A stretch of DNA of 64,000 nucleotides from a virus (taxonomy: Duplodnaviria > Caudoviricetes), in IMG/VR virus record IMGVR_UViG_3300016643_000312, positions 5,139 to 69,138 of that record. One strand, 5' to 3'. The notes beneath the pieces were generated by a model. The model was not told where the DNA came from. It saw nothing but the letters and a program-made list of their open reading frames with translations, and made no database searches. Made by a program: the position numbers and the translations under genes. This document shows positions 1,990 through 56,896 of this stretch, one piece after another (position 1 is the stretch's first letter; each line of letters begins with the position of its first letter).

Positions 1990-2015
1990 TATTGACTTTA
2001 AAAAGGAAATAATTA
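1990..2015 (+). promoter_or_regulatory. TAYTGAC-N13-TA motif (putative short-spacer promoter)
   Basis: TATTGACT TTAAAAAGGAAA TAATTA, 18 nt before ATG 2033. Confidence 0.65.
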
Positions 2016-2032
2016 ATACTAGCCACAACCTT

Positions 2033-2419
2033 ATGCATGCCCTTGCCATCCTGGCGATTGCTGCGGTTTTTACAGGTTGTTCAACAACTCCAAAAGGCGG
2101 CCCTGATTTCAGCGTAGCCGAGACTCGATTGGATTTAGCTTATCAATCCGCCGACCCCGTCACCCGAAAACACCTGGATGAAGCCAGAAAACAATTGGCG
2201 TCCGCAAAACAGCTTTGCCTGACCAACACCGAGGCGTTGGAGCAGGCCGTCAGGGAACGCAACGAGGCTTCCGCCAAGGCCGAGTATTGGGCCGCCAAAC
2301 AGCGTAAAGCGCTTAAGGAACTCTGGTTCTGGAGAGGCGCCCTGATTGTGTCCGTCCTGTTTGCCGCCCGGGGTCCGATTCTCTGGTTAATCAGAAAGTT
2401 TATTGGGATACCCTGGTGA
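2033..2419 (+). CDS. Lipoprotein with C-terminal TM, unimolecular-spanin-like
   Basis: Start at ATG 2033; signal MHALAILAIAAVFTG-C (lipobox), helical core, C-terminal hydrophobic segment; inside the lysis cassette. Confidence 0.6.
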   Translation: MHALAILAIAAVFTGCSTTPKGGPDFSVAETRLDLAYQSADPVTRKHLDEARKQLASAKQLCLTNTEALEQAVRERNEASAKAEYWAAKQRKALKELWFWRGALIVSVLFAARGPILWLIRKFIGIPW

Positions 2420-2757
2420 TCCGCTGGCTTCAATCCAACCTGCAGGGACTGGCGGCCCTTTCGGTGGCCACTATCATCTTCTTTTTTCTGGGCCCTATTC
2501 TGCAAGGTTTCGACACGACCGCCGGCACGGTCGACCTCGGTAGCCTTCACGTTCTGGCTTTTGGGGCCGTTCGTTTTCTTTTTTGTACTTTTCTCGCGTG
2601 GTCGGTCCTGCAACTGGATTGGAAAATCCTGGACCGGTACATTGACCGTGGGGTCTTGCGGGATGACTGGAAGGAATCGGGGGCCAGGACCCGGCTGACG
2701 TTGTTTATCGCCGTGTTCATTGCCCTACTCTTTGCGGCCATCCTGTCGTGCAAATAA
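2416..2757 (+). CDS. Holin-like three-TM membrane protein
   Basis: Three hydrophobic segments; immediately upstream of the endolysin. Confidence 0.6.
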   Translation: MIRWLQSNLQGLAALSVATIIFFFLGPILQGFDTTAGTVDLGSLHVLAFGAVRFLFCTFLAWSVLQLDWKILDRYIDRGVLRDDWKESGARTRLTLFIAVFIALLFAAILSCK

Positions 2758-3281
2758 CCTATGCTTGCGCGCTTTCTCTTGTGCTTACCTCACCGGCTTT
2801 TTTGCTGGGTGATCAGGAAAGTTCGAGGGATCGACTCGTCCACACCGCCCAAACCCAGATTGGGGTGCGAGAAGATACGGGTAGAAACGACGGACGCGTG
2901 GTGGATTCGTACCTGGCCTCCACGGGGCTAGCCGGATCCAGGGCGCCGTGGTGCGCCGCTTTTATTGTTTGGGTCGGGGACACAGCCTTTGGCTCAACTT
3001 TATTTAACCCTTACCCTCGCTCGGCTTGGTCTCCCGTCTTTGTGGCTAAGCCGACCTGGGACCGACAGCGCAGAGGCACACCTCTCAGGCCCGCCGATGT
3101 CTTCGGGATCTGGTTTAACTCGATGGGCCGGGTGGCGCACGTTGGCCTGGTGGAAAAGAACGAGGGGGAGTGGATCGTAACGATCGAGGGCAACACCAAC
3201 GGAGGCGGCAGCCGGGACGGGGACGGGGTTTACCGCCGCCGGCGGATGGCGGTCAATGTGTTGGGCAAGGGTTGGCTATGA
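2748..3281 (+). CDS. CHAP-domain endolysin with hydrophobic N-terminus
   Basis: PWCAAF (catalytic Cys), HVGLVE (His), TIEGNT; N-terminal signal/SAR-like segment. Confidence 0.85.
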   Translation: MQITYACALSLVLTSPAFLLGDQESSRDRLVHTAQTQIGVREDTGRNDGRVVDSYLASTGLAGSRAPWCAAFIVWVGDTAFGSTLFNPYPRSAWSPVFVAKPTWDRQRRGTPLRPADVFGIWFNSMGRVAHVGLVEKNEGEWIVTIEGNTNGGGSRDGDGVYRRRRMAVNVLGKGWL

Positions 3282-7643: not shown

Positions 7644-7855
7644 GCCTGGAGCTAAGTGATTCATCGGCTTCTTATCTTGAGGTGGAACCGTTTTCCCCCT
7701 TTTTGTACACCACAGAAATTTGCGACACAGGAGTGCTGGATATCGAGATATTAATCGAGCCGGGCACCGTCAATATATTTGGCGCGTCCTTCGCTTTTGC
7801 TGAAGCCCTCCAGGATCAGTCCAGCAATCCATTATTGACAGAGAGCCGTTCATAA
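7640..7855 (+). CDS. Small acidic virion-module protein
   Basis: ATGA overlap with the upstream gene; ends LQDQSSNPLLTE. Confidence 0.55.
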   Translation: MSLELSDSSASYLEVEPFSPFLYTTEICDTGVLDIEILIEPGTVNIFGASFAFAEALQDQSSNPLLTESRS

Positions 7856-7876: not shown

Positions 7877-8506
7877 ATGCCAAAAATCACAGAGCTTATT
7901 TCTGTTGCGGGCGCATTAACTGCGTCGGATGTGTTTCCAGTCGTAAACTCCTCGACCACCAAAAAAATAACTCTTTCCGGCTTGCGGGACAACATCTTGC
8001 TCGGCGGAGCTGTAACCTCCAACATATTGGCCGACAGTGCCGTGACCTCGGCTAAGATTAGTGCTGGAGCGGTGACAAACTCCCAGGTTACTCAAGGCAG
8101 CCTTAGCCAGGATCGTTTGGCCACGGTAGCGGGGCTGACGGCCCAAGCTTACGGCTCAGCGACCGCAATACCCGTGGTCACCCTTACGGGGCAGGGAACT
8201 GTTTCCGCGGCCTCAACGGCGGCTGTTAGAAGCATGGCAAGCGCGGCGGTTTATCAGCCCATTAACGGCGCTCGGTTTAATCTTTTCCGCCTTACTTATG
8301 CAATTGTCATGCAAACAGCCATTACTTCTGGTTTTTCCTCTGGCAGTGGCACCGCCACTTTGGCCGGGGAAGGTGCCGGCGGCCCTGTCTCAAGTTTTCC
8401 CATCGGGGCCACCATACCCGCCGGCACTCTTGTTTATGTTACCTATTCGCTTTTAAGCTCCTCCGCTCAAAATTGGTATATGTCATTTGGATTTACTTAC
8501 GCTTAA
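7877..8506 (+). CDS. Tail fibre-related protein
   Basis: KITEL...DVFPVV...TKKITL N-terminus, ILADSAVTSAKI repeat, TAQAYGSATAIPVVT motif. Confidence 0.7.
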   Translation: MPKITELISVAGALTASDVFPVVNSSTTKKITLSGLRDNILLGGAVTSNILADSAVTSAKISAGAVTNSQVTQGSLSQDRLATVAGLTAQAYGSATAIPVVTLTGQGTVSAASTAAVRSMASAAVYQPINGARFNLFRLTYAIVMQTAITSGFSSGSGTATLAGEGAGGPVSSFPIGATIPAGTLVYVTYSLLSSSAQNWYMSFGFTYA

Positions 8507-8509
8507 GTT

Positions 8510-17342: not shown

Positions 17343-17368
17343 CGAATACTGGCAGAATCCGGTCAATA
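17343..17368 (-). promoter_or_regulatory. TAYTGAC-N13-TA motif, antisense orientation
   Basis: Minus strand TATTGACC GGATTCTGCCAG TATTCG, intergenic. Confidence 0.5.
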
Positions 17369-20447: not shown

Positions 20448-23400
20448 ATGACGCTGTCAGAATTGTTGCGAAAACCCAGGTTCCTGGCCGAGGACCCGGA
20501 CAAGCAGGAAGAGGTTATCGACACTTACGTCGAGGCCGCCAGGCAACGGGCTTTGGCCAACAACGGGCTGGGCGGGGACCCAAGAAAATATTTTCAGGCG
20601 GTGGCCGAGGCCGACCAGGCCAAGGCCCAACTTGGCCTGACCAAAGACACACGCTCATGGTTTGACAAGGCCACCGACTCCTTTGTCGAAGGTTTGGACA
20701 CCGCGGCCGATTCCATGACGGCCCTGCAGGCAGTCAGCGGAATCCTGCCTCCGGACAAGGCAGCCGAGCAGATTGCCGCCAACGCGCTGGAACGAAGTCA
20801 AAGACCGCAGGCCAGGTCCATGATGAAGTTCCAGAAAGCAGGAGACAAAGGCTGGGCGGCACCGCTGATCAATCTTTTTTCCAATCCGGAAGCCGCCGCG
20901 CTGATTACGGCCCAGGGGCTTGGCACCAGCGTGCCGGGCATTGCCACGGGTTCCGCGGCCGCCGGAGCGGCCTCGCTTTTAAAGGCTGGTCCCATTGTCC
21001 GGGCCTTGTCGGTTTCCGGGGCTGTGGGAGGTTCATCTGCCTTGGTGGAGGGCGGGGCTCAGATTCTGGAGGATCTGCAGGCGGAAGCCGGAGGCGACTT
21101 GCAAAACACCGAAGCTCTGACGCAAGCCCTCTCAAATCCGGAGGTGCTAGCCAAACTGAGGGACAGGGCAACCAAGCGTGGCATCGGAGTGGGTGCGTTT
21201 GACGCGGCCTCCGTGCTCATACCATCAGAACGAATTTTAAAAACCGCCAAGGGATTAAAGGGTTTAGCCGCCAGGGGGGCAATCAACACGGTTCTGCAGG
21301 GAGGTCTGGGGGGTGCGGGAGAGGTGGCCGGCAACGTAGCTATCGGAGAAAAAACCAACCCTTCGGATTTCTGGGCGGAAGTGGTGGGCGAGGTTTTGCC
21401 GGGCATGGTGGAGCTGGGCATTGCCGGAAGGGGAGACCTGACCCCGCAGACCGACCAGGCTCTGAAGGAAAAACTTGGGCAAAACCAGGCCCGCGTGTTC
21501 GCCACCCCGACCGTAGATGCGGCCCCCGTGCTCCGAAAAAAACGGCCCGGGGACTTTTCTCCTCCGGCGGTTTCCATGGCCAAGGCGCAGGAGGTGGTGT
21601 CGTCAGCCGAAGCCACACCACAAGCTGCGCCACAAACGGCGACGCCTGGAAAGCCACCTGTTGCCGGACAACCCGCCCAACCTGTAACCCAGGAGGTCAA
21701 GCCGGTTAAAAACCCTCCGACAGAACTGGGTAAGACTGCGGATGAGATAGAGAAGGAGCTGCCGGAAGAGGAAAGAAAGTCTCCCTTCATCATTCACACC
21801 AGCGGTGTGGGCACATCCTCTGAAGTAAATACCCTCGCCAAAAAATACAACCTTACCGTCCAGCCCACCCTGAACACCCAGGATACCGAGGCCATGGTGG
21901 CGGGGGATCTGGAGCGTGCGGACGCCGTGCTGGTGATCGGGAACGATGAAAGCCTCCGCAACGACCCCGGGCAGATGCAGCAACGAAGGGCGGCAATCAA
22001 GAAACCGGGCACAAAGGGCACGGTGATAGAGGGCCGCGACCCAAGCCGGATTCTCCTCAACGTCCTTGACTTCCTGCGGGCCAACCCCAAGGCAAAGAAC
22101 TTTGCCGTGGCCATGCCCCAGTCCACGGCCATCAACGTAACTGGCGAGCAGAAACAAAAAACAATTTCCACGGCCGGATTGATTGTTGACCAGATTTTTG
22201 ACTTTATCAGCCAGCTGAATCCGGACCCAGCCAAGCGGGACTACGACGACCTGGAAAGACAGATCCGGGAATACAGCGGACTGAACAAGGCCGAGCTCGC
22301 GGACCCGAAACAAACGGCGGCCAATGTGATCCCGGGGTATCCCTACGCCGCCAACTCCGAGGCGGCCAGGGAGCTAGCCGGGGAGTTTGAGGGCCCGGGC
22401 AACGAAAATAATATCCTGGTGTATCAAACCGGCTCCAAGCCCCAAGTTGGCGTCGGGGAACTTGCCAAGATCCTGGGAGCTCAGCCCGGCCAGATTGGAC
22501 TGGCAGGCAGGACATACGCCCTGCCGTTTTTCACAAAACAAAAGCAGCCGTCCAAAAAGAAGTTGTCCCGGGAGGGGGAGGAAAGCGGGTTGGACATCAA
22601 GAAAACCCAGGATGAATTGAAAAAATTCCTGGAGTTTGCCAAGGCCAACCCAACAAAAAAATTCCTTTTCACGCCAAGCGCCTACACCGGAAACTTTACC
22701 CAACTGGAAGAGCGCCAGCTTTGGGGAGGCCTGACAAATATACCCTCCAATGTGAGGCCGATGGCGGATACTTTTGCCAATGCCCTGGCCCGTGGAACCA
22801 TGGCCTCGCAGAACGCGGGCCGGGTTGTTTCGTGGGACACGCAAAGGGCCGGCAAGAGAGGCCGCAACAGCGCCCAAATACTGAACCTCGACAAGGTTGA
22901 GGAATCCCAAAACCGTCCGCTTGCCCCGCAACCGGGAATGGACCCCGAGCAGGCAAAACGGGAACAGACGCTTGCGGACGTTTCCGCAAGACTCACCCGG
23001 GCCCAGCGGATCCGTGGGATTGGGGCCCGGGTCGGGGAACAAAAAGGCTCGATCCCGATCCTCAAGGGAGTGGTAATCAGCGAGGATCACTACAAGCGTT
23101 ATCTCCGCCCGGCGGCCACGCAGGTCAAAAGAAAACAGGAGCGCCGGGCCATTGGGACGCCGGAAGAACAAGGAACCCCTTACCGGCCCAAGCAGGATGC
23201 CGGCGGGATCACCGAAGCCTTTCCTTTCCCGTTTCGTGTTTTTGGGAGATCCAAAACCGCCGGCGGGGATATGGTTCTGTTGGTTCGAAACATACGGCGG
23301 ATCGGGGATGAAGTGTCCACGGAGGAGGCCGAGCAGGTCGCGCAATACCGCAAGGGCAGCCTGGATTACCTGAAAGGTATGGGGTCAAAGCCAAGGTACC

Positions 23401-26400
23401 TTGTCGAGTTTCGGTATCTGCACCAGGTCCCGCAGGAAAACATCAGCCGGTCCATACCTCCCAAATACACGTTTCGCCGCACGGAGGCCACCAACCGTTC
23501 GGAAGCACTAAACGCCGGAGATTTGGACGCACCTATTCAAACCATGGAAGAAATAAGCGAGGGCCAGGAGGAAACGCAGGTGACCTTTGGGGCGCAGGGA
23601 AATAAAACAGAGTGGGGAGACGACCCAATTGGCCTAGAAGAACTACAAAAAAACCTTAATTTTACTGTGTGGTCTGGGTTTTCAAACGAACAGAAAAAGA
23701 AATTTTTGTCTTCAATTGATACTATTCCGACGTTAAGCGCGGAAGACAAAAAGAAGATAGTTGATAAACTTAAACTTTTTGAAAAACAGAAAAAACTAAA
23801 AGGAACCAAAACAGGATTTTTCCGGCCGCCTCCGTACCTAAAACTGAAGTTTGACGCCCAGGCCAAACCTTACGTGGAGTTTTTGCAGGAGCCCGCCACG
23901 GCGGGAGAACCGTCCAGAAAGCCGGTAGCTATGAACTACCCCATGCCCCCGGAGGCCGTGCGGCCGGAGCTGCGGGCCAAGTACCCGAAGGGAACAACCA
24001 CGCTCAAGCTTGTGCAAAACGGGGACAGAAAAGCCACCACCCGTCGGCCTTTTGCCAAAGTGGGGGACGAGATCCGCTTCGAGGACGATCCCACGGTTTA
24101 TGAGGTGACTGAGGTCAGGGTCCCAAATCTGACCACGCCGGAAGGCCGACTCGAATGGGAAGAATCCGAAGGTTGGTCTCTTGATTTCATCGACCGCAGC
24201 CCGAAACTGCGGCAACAGGTTTACTCCCCCGACGCCGTCCAGACTGTCTTTAGAAAAGTAATCCGTAGGGGAGGCATAGCTATCCCCTATGTTGACTTTG
24301 ACCAGATGGTTTCCGACATTCTTGAGGAGAATGAATTGCCCGTGTCCGCATTGATTGAACGGGAAGTTCCGCTTTTTCGCAGGATGACGGCCGACGAGTT
24401 GGGCCAGGTCCGGCTGGGGCTCAAGCTTGCCCGTGAAGTTGTGGGTAGCTTAAAGCCCGGTGACCGTTTGAACCGCAAACAGGCAAAAATGCTTCGTCCG
24501 TTCCTGGACTTGGTTGGCCGGCATGTGGAACTCCAGAACATTGTCCGTGAAGCTTATCAGGGATCAGTTGAAGGCTGGGGCTTAAACACCCCCAGGAATT
24601 ACGTCAAACTGATGGCGGCAAGACTCATTGGAAACCCAAACCTTACGACCTTGGTGCCTTCCGGAAATTCCGTTCCTGTTGGAATCACGGAGGCGGCCGA
24701 GCCGGACCCGGTAAAACGCAGCCAGGACGGGGGAGAACCGGAAAATCTTGTTCCCGATAAAGCCGTTTTCACTTCGGACGACAAACTAGTTCTGTTGGAC
24801 GGGAACAATGAAACCCTTCAAACCTTGGACTTTTCCTTCCGTCACAAAGACATTGCCAACACCACCAGGACCAATGTTGTTTCTCAGGAAGCCCTCGTCA
24901 CCCCGGGGTTGTCCATCGTGCGGGCAGACCTGGAAGCCGAGGGCAAATGGCGGAACCTGAGCCCGGAAGAACAAACGGATCTGTCCTGGATCGAGCAAGG
25001 GCCAAAAGCCGGATACCGCTTCAAGTTTTTGGAGGACATCAGGAAAACGCTTTCCGAGGGTTATCCTGTCGGGATTGCCGATGCCGACAGCATTGCTTTT
25101 GTAAAAGCCTACAAATCCATTTTTGAATATGAGGAGACACCTGATGGTTTAATTGTCTTTAGCATCAGTATAAACAAAAAAACCCATTCCGTGGATATTC
25201 CGGTCCCGGGAGTAGCCGGGGACTTCAGCAGGATTTTCTACAGAATCCTCAAGCCCTTCTTTCAGGTGCAGGAGGATGAATTCAACCGGGGGGTTGAATT
25301 TGGACGCTCACCCAAGACCCTGGAATTGGCTCGAGATGAATCGGCGGAAACTTTTGACTTTAGAAACAGGCCGGAAACAACAATCATGCAGTCTACGGAG
25401 GAAAGTTACGCGGGGAGCGAGCCGGTGGGCAGCACGGTGCCGGCCACCACCGCATCGGGGCAACCCACCCTGTCCGTTTTCAGCGAGCTGGAGCGCAGCG
25501 AGGAACAGCTGGAAAACCAGACCCCGGAGACCGAGCTGGGCAATTTTGAGCAGGACGAGAAGGAACGTATCAGCCAAAGCCTGAGATCTTTAAGGCAACA
25601 CCTGCTGGTCAAACCTGAGATCGCCGCGGCCATCCGCAGGGCTGATCCGGATTCCAGGTATGTGAAGATGCTCGTTCTTCCGCAGGTCATGTACCTGGCA
25701 AGAGGAAGGACGGAGCCGTCGCCAAACCTGGATTATCCGTCCGGCTCGGCTTTGATCACCGGCATTGTTGACCCCGTCAACGGGGAACGGTTGGGCATGA
25801 TGGGCCATACGATCGGCCGGTCGCCGGAAGAAATCAGCCGGGAGGATGAGACCGGAAACCTGATTCGCCAGGCCTTTGCCGGCAGACAGGAGGCCGGAAG
25901 ATTCGTGAAATTCTCCGACGAAGTCGACAGTGGGAGGATTTTACGCGCCTGGAATGCCGTGTTGCGGGCCCTGTCGGCGGATCCAAAAGCCCTGTTTGTG
26001 CTTGAGGAGACCTCCTCGGAAGTTGAAGGGCAGATTCTCAACGGCCTTGAGCGGGTCACCAGTTACGACATTTTTGACGGGCGCATCCATTTTACAGGGG
26101 TTTATGACCAGGCCAATAACCGCTGGATCGGCCAGCTGCCTTACGGGGCCCGCCGGTTCACGCCGGAGGAAATCGGTGCCATGCCCAGGGACCAGGTTGT
26201 GGCCAACGCCAAGTTGATCAACGAATGGCTGAGGGAAAGGGGGGCGGAGGTCGACACGATCGGGGTGGACGACCCCAACTTGGCCGACACCGAACTAAAA
26301 TCAAAACTCCAGCTTCTTCAGGTGGTCGCCAAATCCTATTTGGAGGGGATGTTCCCGGATTTCAGGGCCAACGAAAAAAGTTTTGTTCCGGCCTTGCAGA

Positions 26401-32486: not shown

Positions 32487-32498
32487 AACCAATAAGAT
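32473..32498 (+). promoter_or_regulatory. TAYTGAC-N13-TA motif
   Basis: TACTGACA AAATAAAACCAA TAAGAT, before the RBS AGGAG and GTG 32511. Confidence 0.65.
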
Positions 32499-32972: not shown

Positions 32973-33233
32973 ATGCCCCTTGGGAAAAAAGCCTCCATGC
33001 CCTGCAACGTGCCGCGCAAAAGCACGCGGCCCGGCAAAAAGAAAATGGTCAAGGCCTGCGCCAACGGCAAAGAACGCCTCGTCCACTTCGGGGACAGCTC
33101 GATGAAGGACTACACCCAGCACGGCAGCAAGAAGCGGCGCAAGAGTTACTGCGCCCGGAGCGGCGGGATCAAGGGTGGGGACGGCAAGCTGTCGGCCAAT
33201 TACTGGGCACGCAAGGTGCTTTGGAGCTGTTAA
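32973..33233 (+). CDS. Small basic Cys-containing protein (aquatic-phage family)
   Basis: KACANGKERLVHFGDSSMKDYTQH...RRKSYCAR...SANYWA. Confidence 0.75.
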   Translation: MPLGKKASMPCNVPRKSTRPGKKKMVKACANGKERLVHFGDSSMKDYTQHGSKKRRKSYCARSGGIKGGDGKLSANYWARKVLWSC

Positions 33234-33907: not shown

Positions 33908-33933
33908 TATTGACTAGTAAAAGGAAATAGATA
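33908..33933 (+). promoter_or_regulatory. TAYTGAC-N13-TA motif
   Basis: TATTGACT AGTAAAAGGAAA TAGATA, before ATG 33949. Confidence 0.65.
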
Positions 33934-38197: not shown

Positions 38198-38412
38198 AGG
38201 GTTGCTCCCGTTTTGTGTTCATTGACCAGGTTGCTGAGCGCCACACGCAGAGACGTTTCAATCTTGTCAATGAACTCTCCACTGACCCGGGAAGGGGGCG
38301 CCTTGAGGGGTGCAATCCCCATCTCCATCCGGGTTTTGTTGCGTTCTTTGAACTTGGCGTTGGCCAAATCCAAAGCGGCACGTTTGATGGCTGCCTTGTT
38401 GAGCAGACTCAT
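38194..38412 (-). CDS. Small basic protein, possible histone-fold
   Basis: MSLLNKAAIKRAA...RVSGEFIDKIETSLRVALSNLVNEHKTGATL. Confidence 0.55.
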   Translation of the reverse strand: MSLLNKAAIKRAALDLANAKFKERNKTRMEMGIAPLKAPPSRVSGEFIDKIETSLRVALSNLVNEHKTGATL

Positions 38413-38627
38413 GGAGCCAGCAGTGCGCTTAGTTTTTTGCGGAACCTGGGTTGCGGCTTGTTCTTGCCGTTCTCCCAGTTCCAAACGCTCATCTCGTTTG
38501 TGCCAAGCAATATAGCCATCTGTTTTCGGCTCATGCCTGTTCTCACTCGCAGCAACCGTGCAAGAATGCCGTGTGTGCTGAAGTTGGTGTGGACCTTACG
38601 CCCACCGATCGGACTGTATCTGCTCAT
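38409..38627 (-). CDS. XRE-family HTH regulator
   Basis: LRVRTGMSRKQMAILLGTNEMSVWNWENGKNKP. Confidence 0.85.
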   Translation of the reverse strand: MSRYSPIGGRKVHTNFSTHGILARLLRVRTGMSRKQMAILLGTNEMSVWNWENGKNKPQPRFRKKLSALLAP

Positions 38628-38816: not shown

Positions 38817-38848
38817 GCGTGGCACATATGGGCTCATATGTGCCACGC
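38817..38848. promoter_or_regulatory. Perfect 14-bp inverted repeat (operator or hairpin)
   Basis: GCGTGGCACATATG ggct CATATGTGCCACGC. Confidence 0.75.
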
Positions 38849-38870
38849 TACTTCCAGTTATCAGTCAGTA
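38845..38870 (-). promoter_or_regulatory. TAYTGAC-N13-TA motif
   Basis: TACTGACT GATAACTGGAAG TAGCGT, just after the rIIB stop. Confidence 0.65.
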
Positions 38871-39708: not shown

Positions 39709-42050
39709 TGGACCTCCTTTGGTTGTTGATTCAGCTGCGTCTTTTCATTGACGTACTGAATGAAGATGTTTTTCTTAATCTCTTTCTGTTTGCCCGAGCT
39801 GTTCCACCACTCATCGTCATACTCAAAGAACCTGGCCACCGGATAGTTCTTGATGAACTCCCGGGTGGCGTCGATGTATTCAAAGCGGTGATCCCGGATG
39901 TTGGCCCAGGATGAAAGCCCAAGCTTGGTCATCAAGGCTCCGTCGAAATCAAACCCCTTGGACAAAAGAAGTTCGAGTTCCTTGACTGTTTGACTGGCTT
40001 CCTTGTACAGATGGGCAAGTTTGGAGACGGGTTCCGGCAAAACCTGGGAAACCTTCGGGTTCCCGATTTGCAGGAAGTTAAGAATCTTGAGTATCCTTTT
40101 GTGGTAATACTCGGTCTTCTTGTAAGTCCACCCCTTTAACTTGCCGTCAACTTTGTCCACGTCACTTGGGCTGCGATGCTCAAACACCTTGTGGTTCAGG
40201 AAGCGAAGTAGCTTGTCCTTGAAGACAGGGTTTTGCATCCAGTTGGACAAGGCCTCTTGAATGGCGTCGTCCAAACTGACCCAATGATTGGGGACATTGT
40301 CTTTGTCCCCGATCTTAACACCAATAACGCGGTTGTACTCCCTGACTCCCAACCATCTGAGAACTTTAATCCCGTGGTGGGTGAAGTGAGACTTGGGTTC
40401 GAACTTGTCGATCAACACCCAAACCTCGGGACTTCCGTCCGCATCCACGTTGACGATCTCCCAGTTGTCCGAGAGCTTGTCGGGGTCGTCTTTGGGTTTG
40501 TACTCAAAGAAGTGTCCGTCGCAATGCTTGCGTGACTTGATGCCGTTGCTGTCCCCGTCCTTCATCTCGGATGGGGAAAGCTCGGGCAGGTCATCCGCCT
40601 TTAGGAAAGGCAGTGTCCAGAAGTTGGGATACACCTTGGTGAACAGGTCCCTCGACTTGGGGTGTACGCCAATGGCGTAGACGTGGTCGATGGTTTCCCG
40701 ATTGGCGTCCAGGTACTTCTTGATCCGTTTGACCGGGAAACCTGAACGCTCCGTCAGGAAGAAAGCGGCCTTCCCGTGGGGGATGATCTCGCTTTCAAAG
40801 TCCGTCTGGAGTTTGTCCCGGTGGGGATGCTTCCAGAGGATACGCATGTTGACACCTTTGGTCCTGATCCAATCCTTGAAGTCCCCGTCAGAATCATTGT
40901 AGATGTTCTTGAAGACTTTCTTGATGGAGTATTCCTTGGTGGCCAACGGCTTGCCCTGCCAGGTCCACTTGCCATCCAGCTTTTTGGCCAGCTCCTTGTT
41001 GAAGTTGGAGCTGTCCCGCCGGTAGTGGTAGTGGGTGGTGTAACCCCGGGCCGACAATTCGTTGACCTTCAGAATGGCTTCGTATTCATTGGGCATCTGG
41101 TCAACGGTCTTGATCAGGTTGGTCGACAGGCTGTCGGCAATCTTCTTCAGTTCACCGAACAATGCGCTGACCGTCCGGGTGGTGTACTTGAGGGTTTCCC
41201 GGCTGGGGGCCAGGTCCACCTCGCCGACATTCAACTCAAGCACGATGCCCGATTCAATGAGGTTCTTCAGAAGCACATTGAAGTTGGAGGGCAGGTGGCT
41301 TGTGCCGATGGGGTATAACAAACGCCCCATGCGGACAAACGATTTCTTGGAGTCACCAAAGAACACGTAACGGGTTTCCCGGTAGATGGGTTTGCGTTCC
41401 CCAAACTTAAGGTCCTCGTCGACATGCTCTTCCAGTTGGGCGTCAGTCAGGTTGGTAAACCTGGGCCGGACCGGAAACATCCAGGCGATGTTGGCCGCCC
41501 GGTTGGTGAAGGTGTCGATGTCCTCCTTCTTGACCGGGACCTTGATGGTGATGCCGCTGCTTCGGCTTGGCTCGGTGGCCAGAATGGCCGCCTTGCCCAT
41601 GTTGGTCTCGTCCAGGAAGAACGAATAGGTGGTCTTGGTTCCGTTGTGGCAGGACTCGACGATGATGCTGTCGGCATAGGCACGCCAGCATTTGCCGCCC
41701 AATCCGAAGCCGCCCTCGTAGTCGTTGCTGGTCTCCTTCTCGTCGCCGCTGGCGCCGTAGGTGGTGAACAGCTCAAACAGTTTTTCCTTGGGCAAGCCCG
41801 GACCCTGGTCACGGATGATGAACTCCGGGGCCAGCTTGGTCGGGAGCGTCACCTCGATGGGTCGGTTATGCCCGGCCAGTTGGTGCGCCTCGTCCGCATT
41901 GGTCATGTACTCCCGGCACAAGGCCAGGATGGGGTCCGTGTAAAGCGAACCCAAAGCCTCGAACAGCTTGGGATTGAGGCGTATGCTGAACTGTTTTTCC
42001 TCAAACTCCGCCGACTGCACGGGCTTCTGTCTTGAGTTGGTGATGATCAA
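39705..42050 (-). CDS. rIIA: rIIA-like protein (GHKL/Hsp90-like ATPase N-terminus)
   Basis: LYTDPILALCREYMTNA, IRDQGPGL, GGFGLGGK, VDLAPSRETLKY; adjacent to rIIB; probable TTG start at 42050 after GGAG. Confidence 0.85.
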   Translation of the reverse strand: MIITNSRQKPVQSAEFEEKQFSIRLNPKLFEALGSLYTDPILALCREYMTNADEAHQLAGHNRPIEVTLPTKLAPEFIIRDQGPGLPKEKLFELFTTYGASGDEKETSNDYEGGFGLGGKCWRAYADSIIVESCHNGTKTTYSFFLDETNMGKAAILATEPSRSSGITIKVPVKKEDIDTFTNRAANIAWMFPVRPRFTNLTDAQLEEHVDEDLKFGERKPIYRETRYVFFGDSKKSFVRMGRLLYPIGTSHLPSNFNVLLKNLIESGIVLELNVGEVDLAPSRETLKYTTRTVSALFGELKKIADSLSTNLIKTVDQMPNEYEAILKVNELSARGYTTHYHYRRDSSNFNKELAKKLDGKWTWQGKPLATKEYSIKKVFKNIYNDSDGDFKDWIRTKGVNMRILWKHPHRDKLQTDFESEIIPHGKAAFFLTERSGFPVKRIKKYLDANRETIDHVYAIGVHPKSRDLFTKVYPNFWTLPFLKADDLPELSPSEMKDGDSNGIKSRKHCDGHFFEYKPKDDPDKLSDNWEIVNVDADGSPEVWVLIDKFEPKSHFTHHGIKVLRWLGVREYNRVIGVKIGDKDNVPNHWVSLDDAIQEALSNWMQNPVFKDKLLRFLNHKVFEHRSPSDVDKVDGKLKGWTYKKTEYYHKRILKILNFLQIGNPKVSQVLPEPVSKLAHLYKEASQTVKELELLLSKGFDFDGALMTKLGLSSWANIRDHRFEYIDATREFIKNYPVARFFEYDDEWWNSSGKQKEIKKNIFIQYVNEKTQLNQQPKEVQ

Positions 42051-44436: not shown

Positions 44437-44459
44437 GTATTGTCCCTCCTTTGTCAGTA
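44434..44459 (-). promoter_or_regulatory. TAYTGAC-N13-TA motif overlapping an RBS and start codon
   Basis: TACTGACA AAGGAGGGACAA TACATG. Confidence 0.4.
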
Positions 44460-44783: not shown

Positions 44784-44904
44784 GATTATCTAAAATGCCT
44801 CCAGTAACCCGACTCGTCGTAGCGGTCCATGCGCTCGAACTTCTCGCGCTCTTCCGCCACCCAGTCGGCGTGGTCTCTGCCGTCAGTCATGTCGGGGTTG
44901 TCGT

Positions 44905-45535: not shown

Positions 45536-45561
45536 GAACTACGGGCGGGGTTGTGTCAATA
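45536..45561 (-). promoter_or_regulatory. TAYTGAC-N13-TA motif
   Basis: TATTGACA CAACCCCGCCCG TAGTTC; upstream box lies in one arm of the hairpin GTCAATAACC/GGTTGTTGAC. Confidence 0.6.
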
Positions 45562-46682: not shown

Positions 46683-46850
46683 TTACGCCCTCGCTTCCTG
46701 CTGGGTGGCGGCTTTGGGCTCCCAGTTGGCCAGCAACAGGTCGAGTCGGGTCGCCAGGGAGGGAGCGACCACACAGATGATCTGCCTCAACTTGGTGTTC
46801 TCCAGGGTCAAGTCCTGGAGCTTGGATTCGATCAGGCTAGGGGTGTGCAT
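46683..46850 (-). CDS. First gene of the leftward early operon, hypothetical
   Basis: AAAGGA RBS, AACCACCATG context. Confidence 0.55.
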   Translation of the reverse strand: MHTPSLIESKLQDLTLENTKLRQIICVVAPSLATRLDLLLANWEPKAATQQEARA

Positions 46851-46852
46851 GG

Positions 46853-46878
46853 TGGTTATTGTCCTTTCTTTGTCAGTA
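46853..46878 (-). promoter_or_regulatory. TAYTGAC-N13-TA motif overlapping an RBS
   Basis: TACTGACA AAGAAAGGACAA TAACCA. Confidence 0.45.
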
Positions 46879-46893
46879 ATGACTTGCAACAGC

Positions 46894-46909
46894 TGTAACG
46901 CCCGTTACA
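46894..46909. promoter_or_regulatory. Palindromic operator-like site between divergent genes
   Basis: TGTAACG cc CGTTACA, with another TGTTAC half-site at 46913. Confidence 0.5.
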
Positions 46910-46918
46910 ATCTGTTAC

Positions 46919-47389
46919 GTGGAAGTGAAACGAACCAATTGGCCTGTGATTGAGGCCGATTATCTGCGAGGCATTCCTGTTTATGTACTTGCAGCGAAGT
47001 ACGGCATCAAACAGCCGACGATTCGCATGCACATGAGGCGTAACAAAATCGCCCCAACGAGAACAGAAGTGCTACAAAAGATAACAGAAACTGTTAAATC
47101 TGTGGCAGCCGAACAAACGGGAGAAGCCCAAGCATATCTGTCAGGCTTAAAGAAAGAAGTTCAGCGCGGCATGGATGCGCTCGCGGTCCAACCACCATCT
47201 TCGCGTGAAGAAGTGGACGAACATTTTACCGCGCTTGAAAAGGTGAATCGTGTGGCAACGACAGCTTTTGGGTTGTCCGAAGGGTCAAAGACCCAAACAA
47301 TGAACATTGCGGTTTTGCAGCAACTTACGCCGGAATCGCTGTCAGTAACTGCCAGTAATGTCATAGATACAGAGACGAGACCGGTTTGA
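46919..47389 (+). CDS. Small terminase subunit-like HTH protein
   Basis: NWPVIEADYLRG...LAAKYGIKQPTIRMHMRR N-terminal HTH; helical body; MNIAVL C-terminus. Confidence 0.6.
   Translation: MEVKRTNWPVIEADYLRGIPVYVLAAKYGIKQPTIRMHMRRNKIAPTRTEVLQKITETVKSVAAEQTGEAQAYLSGLKKEVQRGMDALAVQPPSSREEVDEHFTALEKVNRVATTAFGLSEGSKTQTMNIAVLQQLTPESLSVTASNVIDTETRPV
47322..47347 (-). promoter_or_regulatory. TAYTGAC-N13-TA motif, antisense within the terS-like gene
   Basis: TACTGACA GCGATTCCGGCG TAAGTT. Confidence 0.5.
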
Positions 47390-47991: not shown

Positions 47992-48201
47992 ATGAAAAAC
48001 GCAATTGCCGTCTTGTTGTTTTGCGCCGTGACGGCCGGCGCATTCGCAGAAGACATCAAAATACGTCCCTCCGTGTGGGGCACTCAGGAATGGCCCGGTG
48101 GCTACAACCTGTATCGTGGAGGTACAAAGATCGGGGAAATGAAAGCTTCCAACTGGGGCCAGGAAGCCTGGTACGGCGGATACGATTTGAAATTACGCTG
48201 A
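47992..48201 (+). CDS. Small secreted protein with a duplicated motif
   Basis: Signal peptide MKNAIAVLLFCAVTAGAFA; PSVWGTQEWPGGYNL / ASNWGQEAWYGGYDL. Confidence 0.7.
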   Translation: MKNAIAVLLFCAVTAGAFAEDIKIRPSVWGTQEWPGGYNLYRGGTKIGEMKASNWGQEAWYGGYDLKLR

Positions 48202-48269: not shown

Positions 48270-48572
48270 ATGGAAACGGTGAAATTCAAATCGTGGTTCC
48301 AAAAAATGGGCGCCGGCCTGCGGGCCATGCGCCGAGACATCGGAAGAACCGAATCGCTGCTTGAGCAGCTTGACGAAAAAATATTCGCGCTGCGCCATGA
48401 GCTGCGCGACACGATCAAGGTCTACAAGGACTCCCAGGTTGCACTGGGGGAATTGAAAAAGCAGCAGGGCAGGGAGGAGCGCATCCTCAAACACAAACTC
48501 CGAGGCTACATCCAGGACAACGTCCAGGACGCCAAGGAGCTGATGCAGCACTTTGAAACGGCGGACTTCTAG
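48270..48572 (+). CDS. Coiled-coil hypothetical protein
   Basis: 100-aa heptad-rich ORF. Confidence 0.6.
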   Translation: METVKFKSWFQKMGAGLRAMRRDIGRTESLLEQLDEKIFALRHELRDTIKVYKDSQVALGELKKQQGREERILKHKLRGYIQDNVQDAKELMQHFETADF

Positions 48573-48832
48573 TCCTCGATCATGTCATCGACAAAATCAG
48601 AAACCTCGGAGTGGCTTTTCAAAAGCTTGAGTTTCATCCCGTCGTCCTCGGCCACCATGACCACGCAGGGTCGGTCATTTGCCTTGGAATTGGCAACGTA
48701 CTCGGCCAGGTCCCTGGTCGCCCTTTTGCTGATCGTGACCTCGTGGTTGGGGCTGTCCTCAAGCAACGACATGAGGATGGCCAGGGCGGAGACGTCATTT
48801 TCGACGCGACGAAAGTTTGTCTGGAAGTCCAC
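48569..48832 (-). CDS. Hypothetical acidic protein
   Basis: 87-aa ORF, convergent overlap. Confidence 0.55.
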   Translation of the reverse strand: MDFQTNFRRVENDVSALAILMSLLEDSPNHEVTISKRATRDLAEYVANSKANDRPCVVMVAEDDGMKLKLLKSHSEVSDFVDDMIED

Positions 48833-48866
48833 CCGTCAATCCTGGGCCGTGGCTCCTTAATGTCAA

Positions 48867-49199
48867 ATGAGTGCCAATAAAAGCCCCTACGTTTGGAAAT
48901 ACAGGGGGAAGGGCTCCACGTGGATCAATGATGACCTGGAGGCCCTGATCACGTCCGTGGCGCGCCACGAGGCCCTGGACCCCATGGACCACACGGTGCG
49001 CACGTTTTACAAGCGACAGATCATCCAGCAGATGTGCGAGGAGGATCCCGGGCTCTGCACAAGGTCGGGTCTCGGGGACCTGGTCCACATGTTTGCGATG
49101 CCTGTCGCGGCGATGTTGGACGCGGTCTTTGGCACCAGGATCAAGGACTGCAAGGGATGTGCCAAGCGCAGGGCAATCCTCAACAAGGTAAGGTTCTAG
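48867..49199 (+). CDS. Hypothetical phage protein (GLGD...CxxCxKRR..LN family)
   Basis: C-terminal GLGDLVH...DCKGCAKRRAILN. Confidence 0.7.
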   Translation: MSANKSPYVWKYRGKGSTWINDDLEALITSVARHEALDPMDHTVRTFYKRQIIQQMCEEDPGLCTRSGLGDLVHMFAMPVAAMLDAVFGTRIKDCKGCAKRRAILNKVRF

Positions 49200-49742: not shown

Positions 49743-49768
49743 TACTGACCGACCCTACCTGATAGGAT
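49743..49768 (+). promoter_or_regulatory. TAYTGAC-N13-TA motif
   Basis: TACTGACC GACCCTACCTGA TAGGAT, 7 nt before ATG 49775. Confidence 0.65.
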
Positions 49769-49774: not shown

Positions 49775-49930
49775 ATGGACAAACAAACTCCCGACGACCT
49801 GGCCTCTGTTGAGGGCTATCTGGACGCTAAACAGGTTTTGTCCCGGGACCCCCTGGATTTCAGGGACGAGGACAAAGACAGGGTGGATGACCGGCTGGAG
49901 GGATCGCGGCGAGAATGTCATCCTCGCTGA
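49775..49930 (+). CDS. 51-aa acidic protein, possibly leaderless
   Basis: MDKQTPDDLASVEGYLDAKQVLSRDPLDFRDEDKDRVDDRLEGSRRECHPR. Confidence 0.5.
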   Translation: MDKQTPDDLASVEGYLDAKQVLSRDPLDFRDEDKDRVDDRLEGSRRECHPR

Positions 49931-52200: not shown

Positions 52201-52252
52201 AACTCATTTACCTTCTCATTTTTAATGCCCGGCTTAGCCTTGGCACTTCAAA

Positions 52253-52579
52253 TTAAGCCGCGTTGTAGGCGACTACCTTACCCGACTGTAAATTGACGCG
52301 CGAAAAAGCCCCGTAAATTGTGACCCCGGTCTTAAGCGGCAAATTTGCCGTGCTTCCTGTCCAGTTGGAGGAAGTCAGGGTTGTAAAAACTGTGTCTTCA
52401 AGGGCCGTTATGCAACCCCAGGCTCCGTCAACATTAGCGGCGGTGGTTGAGATGTAATTGGCACCCGCCTTACCCATGGACTCCCGGCTTAGGGTCTCCA
52501 TGTCAGGCAGCGTCTTGTAAAGAATCTGTTGCGGGTCTTGCGTCTCTGATACTACGTCTGTTCCTGCGTCTTTGGGCAT
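52253..52579 (-). CDS. Small putative virion protein
   Basis: ITALEDTVFTTL...GVTIYGAFSRVNLQSGKVVAY family pattern. Confidence 0.65.
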   Translation of the reverse strand: MPKDAGTDVVSETQDPQQILYKTLPDMETLSRESMGKAGANYISTTAANVDGAWGCITALEDTVFTTLTSSNWTGSTANLPLKTGVTIYGAFSRVNLQSGKVVAYNAA

Positions 52580-52589
52580 GGTGTTAGAT

Positions 52590-52615
52590 TAAATACGGAC
52601 CAGAAATAGTCAATA
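52590..52615 (-). promoter_or_regulatory. TAYTGAC-N13-TA motif
   Basis: TATTGACT ATTTCTGGTCCG TATTTA, before ATG 52579. Confidence 0.65.
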
Positions 52616-52846
52616 CTTTCGACCGCGATTTACCGACTTGGATTCGACGGTAAGGTTGGCGGATGAGTTGTTCCAGGTGTTGCCGTCCCGGTGATTGACG
52701 TCCTTGCCACGGATTGCTGCCAGGCCGCGCCGTTTAGCCACTTTTCGTCTGGCTGCGTTTCGCCCGGCACGGCGGCGGAGTTGCTCGGGCTTGCCGTGGT
52801 ACTCACGGTATTCCTTTTTGTAATCGCGTTTGTTCCCGAGGGGCAT
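52610..52846 (-). CDS. Minimal HNH-like endonuclease, basic
   Basis: RDYKKEY...RAGRNAARR...GKDVNHRDGN..NN...NL.V.S...NRGR. Confidence 0.75.
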   Translation of the reverse strand: MPLGNKRDYKKEYREYHGKPEQLRRRAGRNAARRKVAKRRGLAAIRGKDVNHRDGNTWNNSSANLTVESKSVNRGRKY

Positions 52847-52859
52847 GAGTAGGTAGGTT

Positions 52860-52885
52860 AGGATACTGGCATATACCGGTCAATA
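52860..52885 (-). promoter_or_regulatory. TAYTGAC-N13-TA motif
   Basis: TATTGACC GGTATATGCCAG TATCCT, before ATG 52846. Confidence 0.65.
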
Positions 52886-52886
52886 A

Positions 52887-53926: not shown

Positions 53927-54155
53927 AGATTTTCTCCTTTTTGTAAGGACGTTTCCCAATCAAATAACAACCTGTTGTTCATCAATTGGTTGGGCGTTTG
54001 GCCGATTTGTTTGAGATAATACGCATAAATGATACTTAACGGTGGTTTACTGCCTCCGTTTCAAACGATGTGGACTGCGTTACACGAATATGTCGCAAAA
54101 ACGTGTATTACGGCACATGAACTGTCACGTTTTGACGGTTGGTGTACAGTCCGGC

Positions 54156-54437: not shown

Positions 54438-54616
54438 TTGATGGTTTCTCCCTTCATTATTTTTTGGCTTTTGGGGAGCTTGTTGTACTCCCGTTCGGCC
54501 TGGTTGTAGTAATCGAGGCCCTTCTTGCAAAGGGCCACGGCTTTCCGGTACAGGCGCACCACTTTTCGGAAACGCTTCCCGGTTTTTAGGACTGTTGCTC
54601 GATCGCGATTTCCCAT
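54434..54616 (-). CDS. Small basic helical protein
   Basis: 60 aa; overlaps the primase 3' end. Confidence 0.5.
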   Translation of the reverse strand: MGNRDRATVLKTGKRFRKVVRLYRKAVALCKKGLDYYNQAEREYNKLPKSQKIMKGETIK

Positions 54617-56712
54617 GTGATTTTACCTCCGCATTTGCGTCGTTGGATCTGCTCCGGCCGGATCGCCATGATCTTGGCCAAACGCTGGCCCATGCGGTCC
54701 GGACTGGAGACATAGTGGCGGGCGAGCTTTTCCAGCTCGGCGTCGTTGAGCATCCCGTTAAGCAGGTCGGTGGCCGATCCTATCCATACCTTGACCGCGT
54801 GCCCGTTCTGGGCGGTTTTGTAGTTGCCAAGGTACTTGTCCAGGAGCTCCGAAAAGGCGTGGTTGGGGTGCGTGGTGCGGGTGTCCTCCAAGATTTCCGG
54901 GTGGTGGTAGCTGACCACGCCGAACCGGTTGGTGCCTAAAAGCGCCTTGTCCGGCTCCCAATCAACCAGCCAGCGGGCCAGCTCCGGCAGCTCGATCGAG
55001 AGGATCCGGTCGATTTCTTTCTTGGTCGGGAAGGGGAACTCCCGGTGGGTGGCCTTGAAAAGCATGATCTTGTCCAGGATCGAGGTGTCGGTGTAGGGGA
55101 TCATCCGCATGCTTTCCGGGTCGTCGTTAAGCGTGACAATGACCCGGCCAACCCAGTTGATCGTCGTCGGGTTTTCCCGCATCGCCCGATGGCGGTGCTG
55201 GGTGTTGGCGACAAACTTCTTTATCGCGTTGGTGAAGAGAAGGTGCTTCTCGTAGCTCGTCGAGGCGACGGCGTCGTCGATGTTGAGGACGCCGACCTCA
55301 AAAAGCTCGTTGTTGAACTGGTCCCCGCCGGCGATGTGGCTGGAGGCGTCGCAGCCCCCACCCATCAGCCCGGCCACGATCCGAGTGCCCAGCAGGGTTT
55401 TGCCCATCCCCGCAGGCCCGGCAATGAAGACCGCCTGCCCCTGGGCCGGGATCCCGCTGGAGGCCGTCATGTAGAAGTGCCGGAGCCAGGCCAGGAAGTA
55501 TTTGAGCGAGTCGTGCGGGTCGAAGAACTCGTTAAGCAGGCTGGCGATCCATGGAAACTTCTCTCCCCATGCCCCGCCTGATTCGTTGGCCGGGGAGATA
55601 ACTTTGACCCTGGAAGTGTTAAGGATTGAGCGGGTGCCAAAGCGGACGACTTCCTCGTGACTGTAAAGGATTGGACCAGTGGCATCGACCCGGCGGTTTT
55701 CCCGAATGCGGAGCATAGCCTCGTCCACCTCGGCCATCTCGCCCCGGGCGTCGCTGGAAAGGCTGAGCTGAAATAGCCCGGCGATGTCCTTGCGGGCCGT
55801 GTCGGTCGTGGCATCGCGCCAGGATCCGGCGTGGTCGCGTCTCCAGTATTTGATCCCGTCGTACCAGTAGTGCCCCATAGGTCCGCCCAGGCGGCTGTTT
55901 TGGAACTCGGACACCCATTCGGTGCCCAGGATGTCGGCCCAGGTGTAAAAGGATCGGTCCTGAGAAAAACTGATCATCCCGGTGGCCGTGACGATACATG
56001 CCGAAGGGTTGGTTGAGTCGGAAACCCAGAAGGCGTTGGTCCTCCCGTTCAGCTCAAAATTTCCACGCAAGCGGCCCGGATACAGCACGTTGATCCGCTC
56101 AAGCAGCTTGTCGGTCGGGATCTCGGTTGGGCCCTCGCCGCGATACCGGGTCGAGGCGTCAAACGCCGCGGCCAACATCGCAAAAAGCGTGTCGCTTTTG
56201 ATCCTGTGGTCCGACACCTCGGTGGAAGGGGGCAACCAGGCGTAGTATTGCTCCGGTCGTCGGAAATTGTCGTCCAGGTTGGCAAACAGTTGGCGGGCGT
56301 TGACGGCCTTAACCAGCCGGGTCAGGAACGGATCCAACAGCCCGGGCACGATGGCCAGGGGCTTTTCAAAAAGCCAGATCACCCGCACGCCGTTGGAAAC
56401 GGTGCGGTGAACGAACGCCGGCTTCATACCGGCCTTGGCCCGGGTGTTGAGCCCGACCAGGATTTCCTCGGCCGAGATGCTGGCGTCATAGTCGGCAACA
56501 AAGCCGTGCATCCGGCTGACCGGATTTTCACGCGACACACGAAGGTTGGGTGCCTGGCCCTCGTAGGCCGAGATAAAATGCCAGTCGGTCGACGGGTTGG
56601 CCGACCAGGACGCAAACTCGTCCTTGGTCATGCGGGGCAGGGGGGTCTGGTGTTTCCAAGGCTCCGACGGAGTGACCTCGATCGAGGTCAGGTTTTTGAG
56701 GGAGAAAAGCAT
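54586..56712 (-). CDS. Primase-helicase (AEP-like N-terminus, DUF5906-like NTPase)
   Basis: FVADYD...HRTVSNGVRVIW; Walker A GPAGMGKT; FNNEL...LNIDD. Confidence 0.85.
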   Translation of the reverse strand: MLFSLKNLTSIEVTPSEPWKHQTPLPRMTKDEFASWSANPSTDWHFISAYEGQAPNLRVSRENPVSRMHGFVADYDASISAEEILVGLNTRAKAGMKPAFVHRTVSNGVRVIWLFEKPLAIVPGLLDPFLTRLVKAVNARQLFANLDDNFRRPEQYYAWLPPSTEVSDHRIKSDTLFAMLAAAFDASTRYRGEGPTEIPTDKLLERINVLYPGRLRGNFELNGRTNAFWVSDSTNPSACIVTATGMISFSQDRSFYTWADILGTEWVSEFQNSRLGGPMGHYWYDGIKYWRRDHAGSWRDATTDTARKDIAGLFQLSLSSDARGEMAEVDEAMLRIRENRRVDATGPILYSHEEVVRFGTRSILNTSRVKVISPANESGGAWGEKFPWIASLLNEFFDPHDSLKYFLAWLRHFYMTASSGIPAQGQAVFIAGPAGMGKTLLGTRIVAGLMGGGCDASSHIAGGDQFNNELFEVGVLNIDDAVASTSYEKHLLFTNAIKKFVANTQHRHRAMRENPTTINWVGRVIVTLNDDPESMRMIPYTDTSILDKIMLFKATHREFPFPTKKEIDRILSIELPELARWLVDWEPDKALLGTNRFGVVSYHHPEILEDTRTTHPNHAFSELLDKYLGNYKTAQNGHAVKVWIGSATDLLNGMLNDAELEKLARHYVSSPDRMGQRLAKIMAIRPEQIQRRKCGGKITWEIAIEQQS

Positions 56713-56716
56713 GGCC

Positions 56717-56896
56717 TTACTCCCGTTCGTGGTTCTTGAGGTAAATCTTCTCGATGCGAAGAACCGAGCCGTCCGGCCATCTATTGACGATTCCCCGCCA
56801 GTAATCGAGCTCGACCTGGGCGTCCAGCAGGTTGCGGTGCGTCCTTTCCGACACCCGCGACCCGTCTCTTAACACGATGAACCTTGCGTTTTCCAT
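56717..56896 (-). CDS. 59-aa hypothetical protein
   Basis: AGGAG RBS; fills the polA-primase gap. Confidence 0.6.
   Translation of the reverse strand: MENARFIVLRDGSRVSERTHRNLLDAQVELDYWRGIVNRWPDGSVLRIEKIYLKNHERE
56782..56807 (+). promoter_or_regulatory. TAYTGAC-N13-TA motif, antisense toward polA
   Basis: TATTGACG ATTCCCCGCCAG TAATCG. Confidence 0.5.

Follow-up and report, generated by a model that had tools for sequence, protein, structure and literature searches.

The 64,000-nucleotide stretch analysed here (the window) comprises bases 5139-69138 of the 69,138-bp IMG/VR record IMGVR_UViG_3300016643_000312 (G000, rated 96% complete), which belongs to an uncultured freshwater lineage of tailed phages. 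Its dispersed motif TAYTGAC-N13-TA was found to be part of a 22-bp near-palindromic dyad, TAnTGnC-N8-GnCAnTA, whose outer right end is the TA that an earlier reading of the window (the original prediction) had taken as a -10 element. In relatives, the TTGAC of the left half coincides with an ordinary -35 hexamer, and a canonical -10 hexamer follows at 16 or 17 bp. The arrangement is probably best explained by host-type promoters into which operators of a dimeric regulator are built, the regulator most likely acting as a repressor.

An exhaustive scan of both strands returned exactly the 14 copies listed by the original prediction, where 0.24 were expected, and none of 100 dinucleotide-preserving shuffles of the window reached 14, so that the enrichment of TA at the fixed offset held under complete scanning. 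The TAYTGAC heptamer itself occurs 19 times (6.7 expected), and not 18 times as had been counted; the number followed by TA at the fixed offset, 14, was confirmed. The complete G000 record contains 16 sites, the two additional ones being located upstream of the window. The proposed spacing proved rigid, since all 16 sites have N13 and none has N12 or N14. Minus-strand sites are named here, as in the original prediction, by the coordinate of their 5' end.

The placement of the sites is promoter-like. A plausible same-strand start codon was found 1-49 nt downstream of 12 sites, usually 14-22 nt from the end of the motif, and 13 of the 16 sites in G000 share the orientation of the next gene, in agreement with the earlier claim that the sites point to nearby start codons. 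Although the genome is about 89% coding, 12 of the 16 sites are intergenic. Over G000 and the complete relatives G009, G010 and G014, the intergenic fraction was 75-100% (12/16 in G000, 12/12 in G014, about 90% overall) and co-orientation with the next gene was 81-92% (about 85% overall), according to the codon-bias gene calls made in this analysis. The marked genes span all functional classes, structural as well as accessory, and the placement thus supports the genome-wide, promoter-associated regulon that had been proposed.

Alignment of the 16 sites of G000 showed a G at position 16 in 13 sites, a C at position 18 in 10 and a purine at position 20 in all 16, with no conserved position beyond the TA. 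Positions 16-22 form an imperfect reverse complement of TAYTGAC, and the inner positions were complementary in 42 of 80 cases, compared to 20 ± 4 under the null (maximum 35). In the relatives, the pairs 4/19, 5/18 and 7/16 were complementary in 44, 36 and 50 of 53 sites, respectively. The right half is a spacer element, G-n-C-A-R-T-A or, more narrowly, G-n-C-A-G-T-A, which mirrors TAYTGAC at approximately -21 to -15. Some sites of G011-G014 are perfect palindromes and match on both strands. Two near-perfect palindromes of G009 (40649-40670 and 44839-44860; TACTGAC-N8-GTCAGCA) have one mismatch to the search pattern, which indicates that the exact pattern undercounts the site family.

The relatives were obtained in two groups. 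Polymerase-based searches recovered a clade of 41-58% identity that lacks the multi-copy motif, together with short metagenome contigs; within it, G001-G003 form a sister clade with 57-58% polymerase identity. Homologues of the polymerase at 75-88% identity were also noted. On this first set, a de novo expectation-maximisation search recovered only a Shine-Dalgarno or A-rich signal, and spaced-dyad counts, upstream 6-mers, inverted-repeat counts and Markov z-scores gave nothing informative. Canonical promoters (TTGACn and yAnnnT, separated by 16-17 bp) are nevertheless present between the genes of the sister clade, at about ten per genome, and two of these are orthologous to G000 sites, one before the capsid-like gene and the other before the gene at 52253-52579. 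The capsid-like protein was the query that recovered the closer, motif-bearing clade of ten relatives, whereas searches with the 439-aa, the 390-aa and the XRE-type helix-turn-helix (HTH) proteins found none. This clade comprises G006-G008 (82-97% identity), the complete genomes G009, G010 and G014 (72-76 kb), and G011-G013 and G015. All ten carry the motif, in 4-14 copies each (9-14 in the near-complete ones), compared to 0-2 copies of a control pattern.

The closer relatives have a lower GC content, and in them the 22-mer is followed by 2-3 nt and a good -10 hexamer and, in several cases, by a further 6-8 nt and an ATG. The position of this hexamer shows that the TA is not the -10. Across the clade (69 distinct sites), nAnnnT was found at a spacer of 16 or 17 bp from TTGAC in 38 of 56 TATTGAC sites, against a background of 0.11, counts that include partly orthologous and hence non-independent sites. 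The two spacers are equally frequent (18 sites each); the dyad hence keeps a fixed register with the -35 but not with the -10. In G000, the sites 52615, 52885, 1990 and genome position 4071 have the same geometry as their orthologues; together with 46878, these make up five sites with a -10 at a spacer of 16-17 bp, and four further sites have weaker hexamers or hexamers at a spacer of 18 bp. The -35, spacer and -10 of a sigma70-type promoter are present clade-wide, and an upstream, co-oriented position was seen in G000, G009, G010 and G014. Conversely, 7 of 8 intergenic canonical promoters carry the dyad in G009, as they do in G014, and the only one of the TTGAC type in the G000 record without a dyad in register lies at 48839-48866 (minus strand). 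A rigidly spaced bipartite motif is thus not necessarily a -35/-10 pair, and here it was the comparison with relatives that exposed the true -10.

Many of these promoters end close to the start codon. Those of G001-G003 are often 6-9 nt before the ATG, from which leaderless mRNAs are predicted. The -10 is also only 6-8 nt before the start codon at window positions 52577-52615, 52844-52885, 46884-46921 and 48830-48866, as at many sites of G001-G003 and G009-G014, and many of the genes concerned have no Shine-Dalgarno sequence. From these short distances and the missing Shine-Dalgarno sequences, leaderless mRNAs are predicted to be common, a hint that the host may be good at translating such messages.

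The dyad is systematically asymmetric at the pairs 3/20 and 6/17. At promoter sites, the T at position 3 and the A at position 6 complete the TTGAC of the left half, while the right side has a G and a base other than T. A C at position 3 brings back the symmetry but weakens the -35, and a -10 was present in only 3 of 13 sites with this C, compared to 38 of 56 TATTGAC sites (Fisher p = 0.005). The asymmetry is what would be expected of two overlapping constraints, in which the factor would prefer TACTGnC-N8-GnCAGTA and sigma region 4 would require TTGAC in the upstream half.

Six-frame searches of G000 found no T7-like RNA polymerase and no sigma region 2 or 4, which agrees with the earlier statement that no sigma gene is present; in the absence of both, the host RNA polymerase must transcribe the phage. 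A phage RNA polymerase within the 4012-aa protein was considered and rejected, as this protein has no Pfam, PHROG or PDB match and no DxDGD-type motif. In the model that we favour, the host enzyme would read most sites as sigma70-type promoters, with TTGAC as -35 and the -10 located 16-17 bp downstream, and in many cases transcription would start at the start codon or a few nucleotides before it, giving leaderless mRNAs. The dyad stretches over the -35 and the spacer, approximately between -37 and -15, and a dimeric regulator bound to it would compete with sigma region 4 and exclude it. A single switch could in this way silence most phage promoters at once, structural and accessory alike, while the promoter-less copies would act as extra binding sites or roadblocks. 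The sites themselves show a multi-operator pattern, with dispersed copies that cover the -35 and spacer and others without a promoter, 16 in G000. From these patterns we infer that a protein binds the dyad and that binding represses, and candidates for this protein are proposed on the same grounds. If correct, a single site that silences and releases most of a 70-kb phage genome would represent a compact genetic switch and a handle for finding both the regulator and the host, and the sites provide a testable transcription map for this lineage.

The relatives suggest when such repression would operate. Two genes of the lysogeny type occur in G007, G009-G011 and G014. One codes for a tyrosine integrase that shows the usual C-terminal catalytic motif and matches PF22022 and PF00589 (E 2e-5), slightly below the curated threshold; the product of the other is an excisionase-like protein of the HTH_17 family (E 1e-10). 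In G009 and G011, the 3' half of a tRNA-Thr gene adjoins the integrase gene, as an attP would. The motif-bearing clade thus looks temperate, and because of the integrase and excisionase-like genes, repression in a lysogenic or otherwise silenced state appears most likely. The region of G009 concerned (24841-26729; L113:4841-6729) contains the integrase gene, a small open reading frame (ORF) that is possibly ribbon-helix-helix-like and the HTH_17 gene, with the tRNA-Thr(UGU) half at about 24650-24740. ARAGORN found no whole tRNA beside the integrase. The tRNA-Thr piece is absent from G010, G014 and G007, where other attachment sites are possible.

Among the candidate regulators is the product of the gene at 46919-47389 (plus strand), which lies on the strand opposite to its neighbours; this protein of 156 aa is conserved in the clade and combines an HTH at the N-terminus with long helices. 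The gene's own promoter at 46884-46911 (plus strand; 16-bp spacer, good -10, 7 nt before the GTG) has no dyad and abuts the dyad site 46878 (46857-46878, minus strand), which is itself perhaps of the promoter type; the site lies 5 bp from the -35 of the opposite promoter within a 68-nt divergent control region. This layout is kept in G009, G010, G014 and L071, a 10-kb contig about 78% identical to the window that was used for site comparison, and the dyad is identical to that of L071 at 22 of 22 positions. The region resembles a repressor/operator switch region. A second, lineage-specific palindrome extends across the spacer and -10 of the HTH-gene promoter (window 46879-46921; G009 41716-41760), as TGTAAC-N4-GTTACA in G000 and as two copies of GTTGCAAC in G009, G010 and G014, and may be the second operator of a switch. 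On the other side of site 46878, the nucleotide homology between G000 (46848-46857) and L071 (4130-4140) ends exactly at the ATG and different genes follow, which places the conserved site at a mosaic junction.

The factors named by the original prediction fared unevenly. The 72-aa XRE-type HTH gene at 38409-38627 (minus strand) is an insertion specific to G000 and absent from the G009 clade, so that it is unlikely to be the factor for a clade-wide motif. The ORF at 1510-1776 is conserved across the clade and has no recognisable DNA-binding domain. The HTH at the window end (63881-64000, minus strand) is clade-wide and stays a candidate; it is the 3' part of the excisionase-like HTH_17 gene, is cut by the end of the record and follows the tyrosine integrase gene in relatives.

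Several observations weigh against the operator model. No protein that binds the dyad was identified, no S24-type CI- or LexA-like repressor was found, and the only clade-wide XRE/MerR-like HTH is the excisionase-like HTH_17 protein. The architecture and highly conserved C-terminus of the 46919-47389 product also fit a small terminase subunit, and its structure model has low confidence (mean pLDDT 57.8). The integrase and attP were seen only in relatives, as the G000 record breaks inside the HTH_17 gene; by analogy with G009, the missing 4% or so would contain the integrase gene, the attachment site, the rest of the portal-like gene and a neighbouring 571-aa gene. A convincing -10 is present in only 5-9 of the 16 G000 sites. 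The two asymmetric base pairs and the partial orthology of the sites counted across relatives point the same way.

The original prediction had proposed a short-spacer promoter, in which the TA starts the -10, 12 bp after a TTGAC-like box near -30 that is read by a MotA-like activator or an unusual sigma factor. The rigid N13 spacing would suit it, TAnnnT starts at the TA in 6 of the 16 G000 sites (by eye), and at 49743 (49743-49764, plus strand) the TA truly starts a -10. This last match is of a different kind, however: the -35-like hexamer that pairs with the -10 lies 4 nt upstream of the heptamer at a 16-bp spacer, an ATG follows after 6 nt, and L071 retains the promoter without the TAYTGAC heptamer. 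Conservation ends at the TA, the right half mirrors the left, and in relatives the canonical -10 begins 2-3 nt further on, at 16 or 17 bp from a TTGAC that behaves as an ordinary -35. Neither sigma factor nor phage RNA polymerase was found, as described above, and the MotA and AsiA profiles (PF09114 and PF09010) gave no six-frame match at E ≤ 1 in the 96% complete record. With canonical geometry and none of these proteins at hand, the short-spacer promoter is very improbable. It is also unlikely, if less so, that the spacer element is intrinsic to the promoter, either recognised by the host RNA polymerase or acting through promoter strength or DNA shape, with no regulator and an incidental dyad. 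The element does lie inside promoters, nearly all strong promoters of the clade have it, and no regulator was identified; yet its distance to the -35 is fixed while that to the -10 varies by 1 bp, and at 13-18 bp from TTGAC the element is beyond the reach of sigma region 4. An intrinsic element would also not account for the near-perfect palindromes, for the sister-clade promoters that do without it, or for the conserved copies that lack any -10, such as the site at the end of rIIB, with its hairpin, and an antisense copy after the portal-like gene, both kept clade-wide as promoter-less copies.

If the dyad does bind a protein, positive control by a phage-encoded activator of a middle or late class seems rather unlikely. 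Phages P1, Mu and P2 have late promoters of this kind, activator-dependent and with a dyad in place of the -35 or next to it, and many marked promoters of G000 have a poor -10, as such a system would allow. The relatives, however, combine a near-consensus -35 with a good -10 at optimal spacing, so that their promoters should be intrinsically active; moreover, the site covers the -35 itself and the marked genes belong to all functional classes. It is quite unlikely that the unconstrained form of the dyad, TACTGnC-N8-GnCAGTA, is bound by a global regulator of the host, such as a LexA-like repressor with longer spacing; in that case, an entire clade of temperate freshwater phages would have put most of its promoters, those of structural genes included, under the direct control of a stress switch of the host, with no need for a phage repressor. 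Three further explanations were rejected. An RNA hairpin or translational operator is at odds with the lack of covariation between the halves and with the antisense copies; the promoter-like placement does not fit nick or restriction sites; and a divergent pair of -35 hexamers would need a -10 on the other strand, where there is none. Embedded operators for a dimeric regulator remain the preferred explanation for most of the sites.

The best-documented dyad promoter is site 52615 (52594-52615, minus strand), with the -35 at 52613-52608, a 16-bp spacer, the -10 at 52591-52586 and, after 6 nt, the ATG at 52579, for which a leaderless mRNA is predicted. L071 retains the -35, dyad, -10 and spacing of this promoter but has other bases in the 6 nt ahead of the ATG, and orthologous canonical promoters are present in G001-G003. 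The neighbouring site 52885 (52864-52885, minus strand) precedes an HNH-like 78-aa gene with a 17-bp spacer, a -10 at 52860-52855 and an ATG at 52846. Site 1990 (1990-2011, plus strand) has its -35 at 1992-1997, a 17-bp spacer, a -10-like hexamer at 2015-2020 and an ATG at 2033, and its orthologues in G006 and G009 show the same geometry. Upstream of the window, genome position 4071 is a promoter-type site and 1304 has no promoter.

Other promoter-type sites have less regular -10 hexamers in G000. The dyad at 7833-7854 (plus strand), before a tail-fibre-like gene at 7877, has a weak -10-like hexamer at spacer 17, where the G009 orthologue (7386) has a clear one. The site at 32473-32494 (plus strand) overlaps the stop codon of the 4012-aa ORF and precedes a GTG at 32511, and its G009 orthologue (56598) is followed by a good -10 at spacer 16, 8 nt and an ATG. 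Before the 439-aa gene (ATG 33949), the site at 33908-33929 (plus strand) has a -10-like hexamer at spacer 16, the same as in G009. Site 45561 (45540-45561, minus strand), with a -10-like hexamer at spacer 18, is kept in L071 (20 of 22 positions) and in G009.

Promoter-less copies comprise three sites of the window. The dyad at 17347-17368 (minus strand) is antisense in a 32-nt gap between two plus-strand tail genes and has no -10. Site 38870 (38849-38870, minus strand), also without a -10, comes immediately after the stop codon of rIIB and abuts, at its other end, a perfect hairpin with a 14-bp stem and a 4-nt loop (38817-38848, minus strand); the arrangement is conserved in the clade, and in G009, G010 and G014 a hairpin of different sequence occupies the same place. 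The site at 56782-56803 (plus strand) is located, in antisense orientation, inside a 59-aa ORF that follows the polymerase gene; L038 and L039 retain the site, but in G009 its left half is degenerate. Three matches are doubtful, the one at 49743 described above and two others. The dyad-like match at 44438-44459 (minus strand) ends 1 nt before an ATG and overlaps both a stop codon and a Shine-Dalgarno sequence; the close relative L071 does not have it, and its function is doubtful. The match at 47326-47347 (minus strand), inside and antisense to the gene 46919-47389, is probably not functional, its TA being CA in L071. At the dyad-less promoter 48839-48866, a GTG 6 nt past the -10 opens an 87-aa acidic ORF (48569-48832), and the orthologue in G009 and G014 is also dyad-less.

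Genome content analyses revealed that the plus strand carries the structural genes, with tail-fibre and virion-protein matches and the 4012-aa ORF without a match, while the minus strand encodes rIIA/rIIB, a family A DNA polymerase, a DUF5906 primase-helicase, a DUF2800 nuclease and an SNF2 helicase. The best polymerase identity to any cultured phage was at most 28%. In relatives that share 66-76% identity in the capsid-like protein, the counterparts of the 4012-aa ORF (20448-32486) reach only 36-44% identity. A small, very basic DUF5754 protein (32973-33233) is 94% identical to copies at another genomic position in G010 and G014 and also occurs in the sister clade. Within the minus-strand block there is an island of small plus-strand genes (47992-48201, 48270-48572, 48867-49199 and 49775-49930, together with the gene 46919-47389), one of which has a signal peptide; among the promoters examined, that of 47992 has no dyad, and that of 49775 is canonical with an incidental motif match. 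These genes may form a module that the prophage expresses. Immediately ahead of the window, the promoter and the capsid-like gene are separated by a leader of about 200 nt (L022:4093-4297, genome coordinates). Both clades (G001-G003 and G006-G014) conserve this leader, with two tandem boxes of about 16 nt (CCTAYAAAAATGGAAG-like) and a GC-rich segment, and it may act as a regulatory RNA or a structured 5' UTR.

The host was sought with the motif and with the tRNA-Thr half of G009. One collection scan with the commonest dyad form gave scattered single matches only. The proposed check of host genomes for the motif was run on samples: the dyad was not enriched in 101 sampled Verrucomicrobiota genomes. 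The tRNA-Thr half had no match with up to three mismatches in 401 Pseudomonadota genomes and matched only with three mismatches, in 2 of 81 Verrucomicrobiota genomes.

The dyad string was sought in the literature without a match. The system was compared with known ones by its organization. T4 middle promoters, which depend on MotA/AsiA, likewise combine a phage-specific box, near -30 in place of a -35, with a TA-containing element (the -10, TAnnnT) that follows at a short and constant distance of 11-13 bp; here, however, TAYTGAC contains a TTGAC -35 instead of the MotA box (TGCTT core), the -10 is normally spaced, the element is a dyad, and MotA and AsiA are absent. The LexA (SOS) box of gamma- and beta-proteobacteria (CTGT-N8-ACAG type) is TACTG-N10-CAGTA, and phages such as GIL01 are silenced by LexA. 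The dyad has the same outer half-sites, TACTG and CAGTA, and an A+T-rich centre, but the gap between its CTG and CAG cores is 12 bp in all sites and not 10. In phiC31, with its conserved inverted repeats, and in P1, with its C1 operators, one repressor acts on at least a dozen dispersed operators of 17 bp over lytic promoters. The sites described here are similarly dispersed and overlap promoters, and those of phiC31 are also inverted repeats; the sequences, lengths and hosts differ, and here the operator would stand in a fixed register with the -35 and also at promoters of structural genes. In mycobacteriophage L5, the copy of the repressor site at the promoter overlaps a TTGACA-type -35. One short repressor site is distributed genome-wide in L5 and other cluster A phages, with more than 20 copies in L5, which occur in promoters and short intergenic gaps in an orientation that correlates with the direction of transcription (PMC9283540). 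The dyad sites are like these operators and stoperators in their many dispersed copies, their location in promoters and gaps and their orientation with transcription. They differ in that the L5 site is a 13-bp, asymmetric sequence bound by a monomer, whereas the element of this phage clade is a 22-bp dyad located mostly on promoters, for which the repressor genes proposed are candidates.

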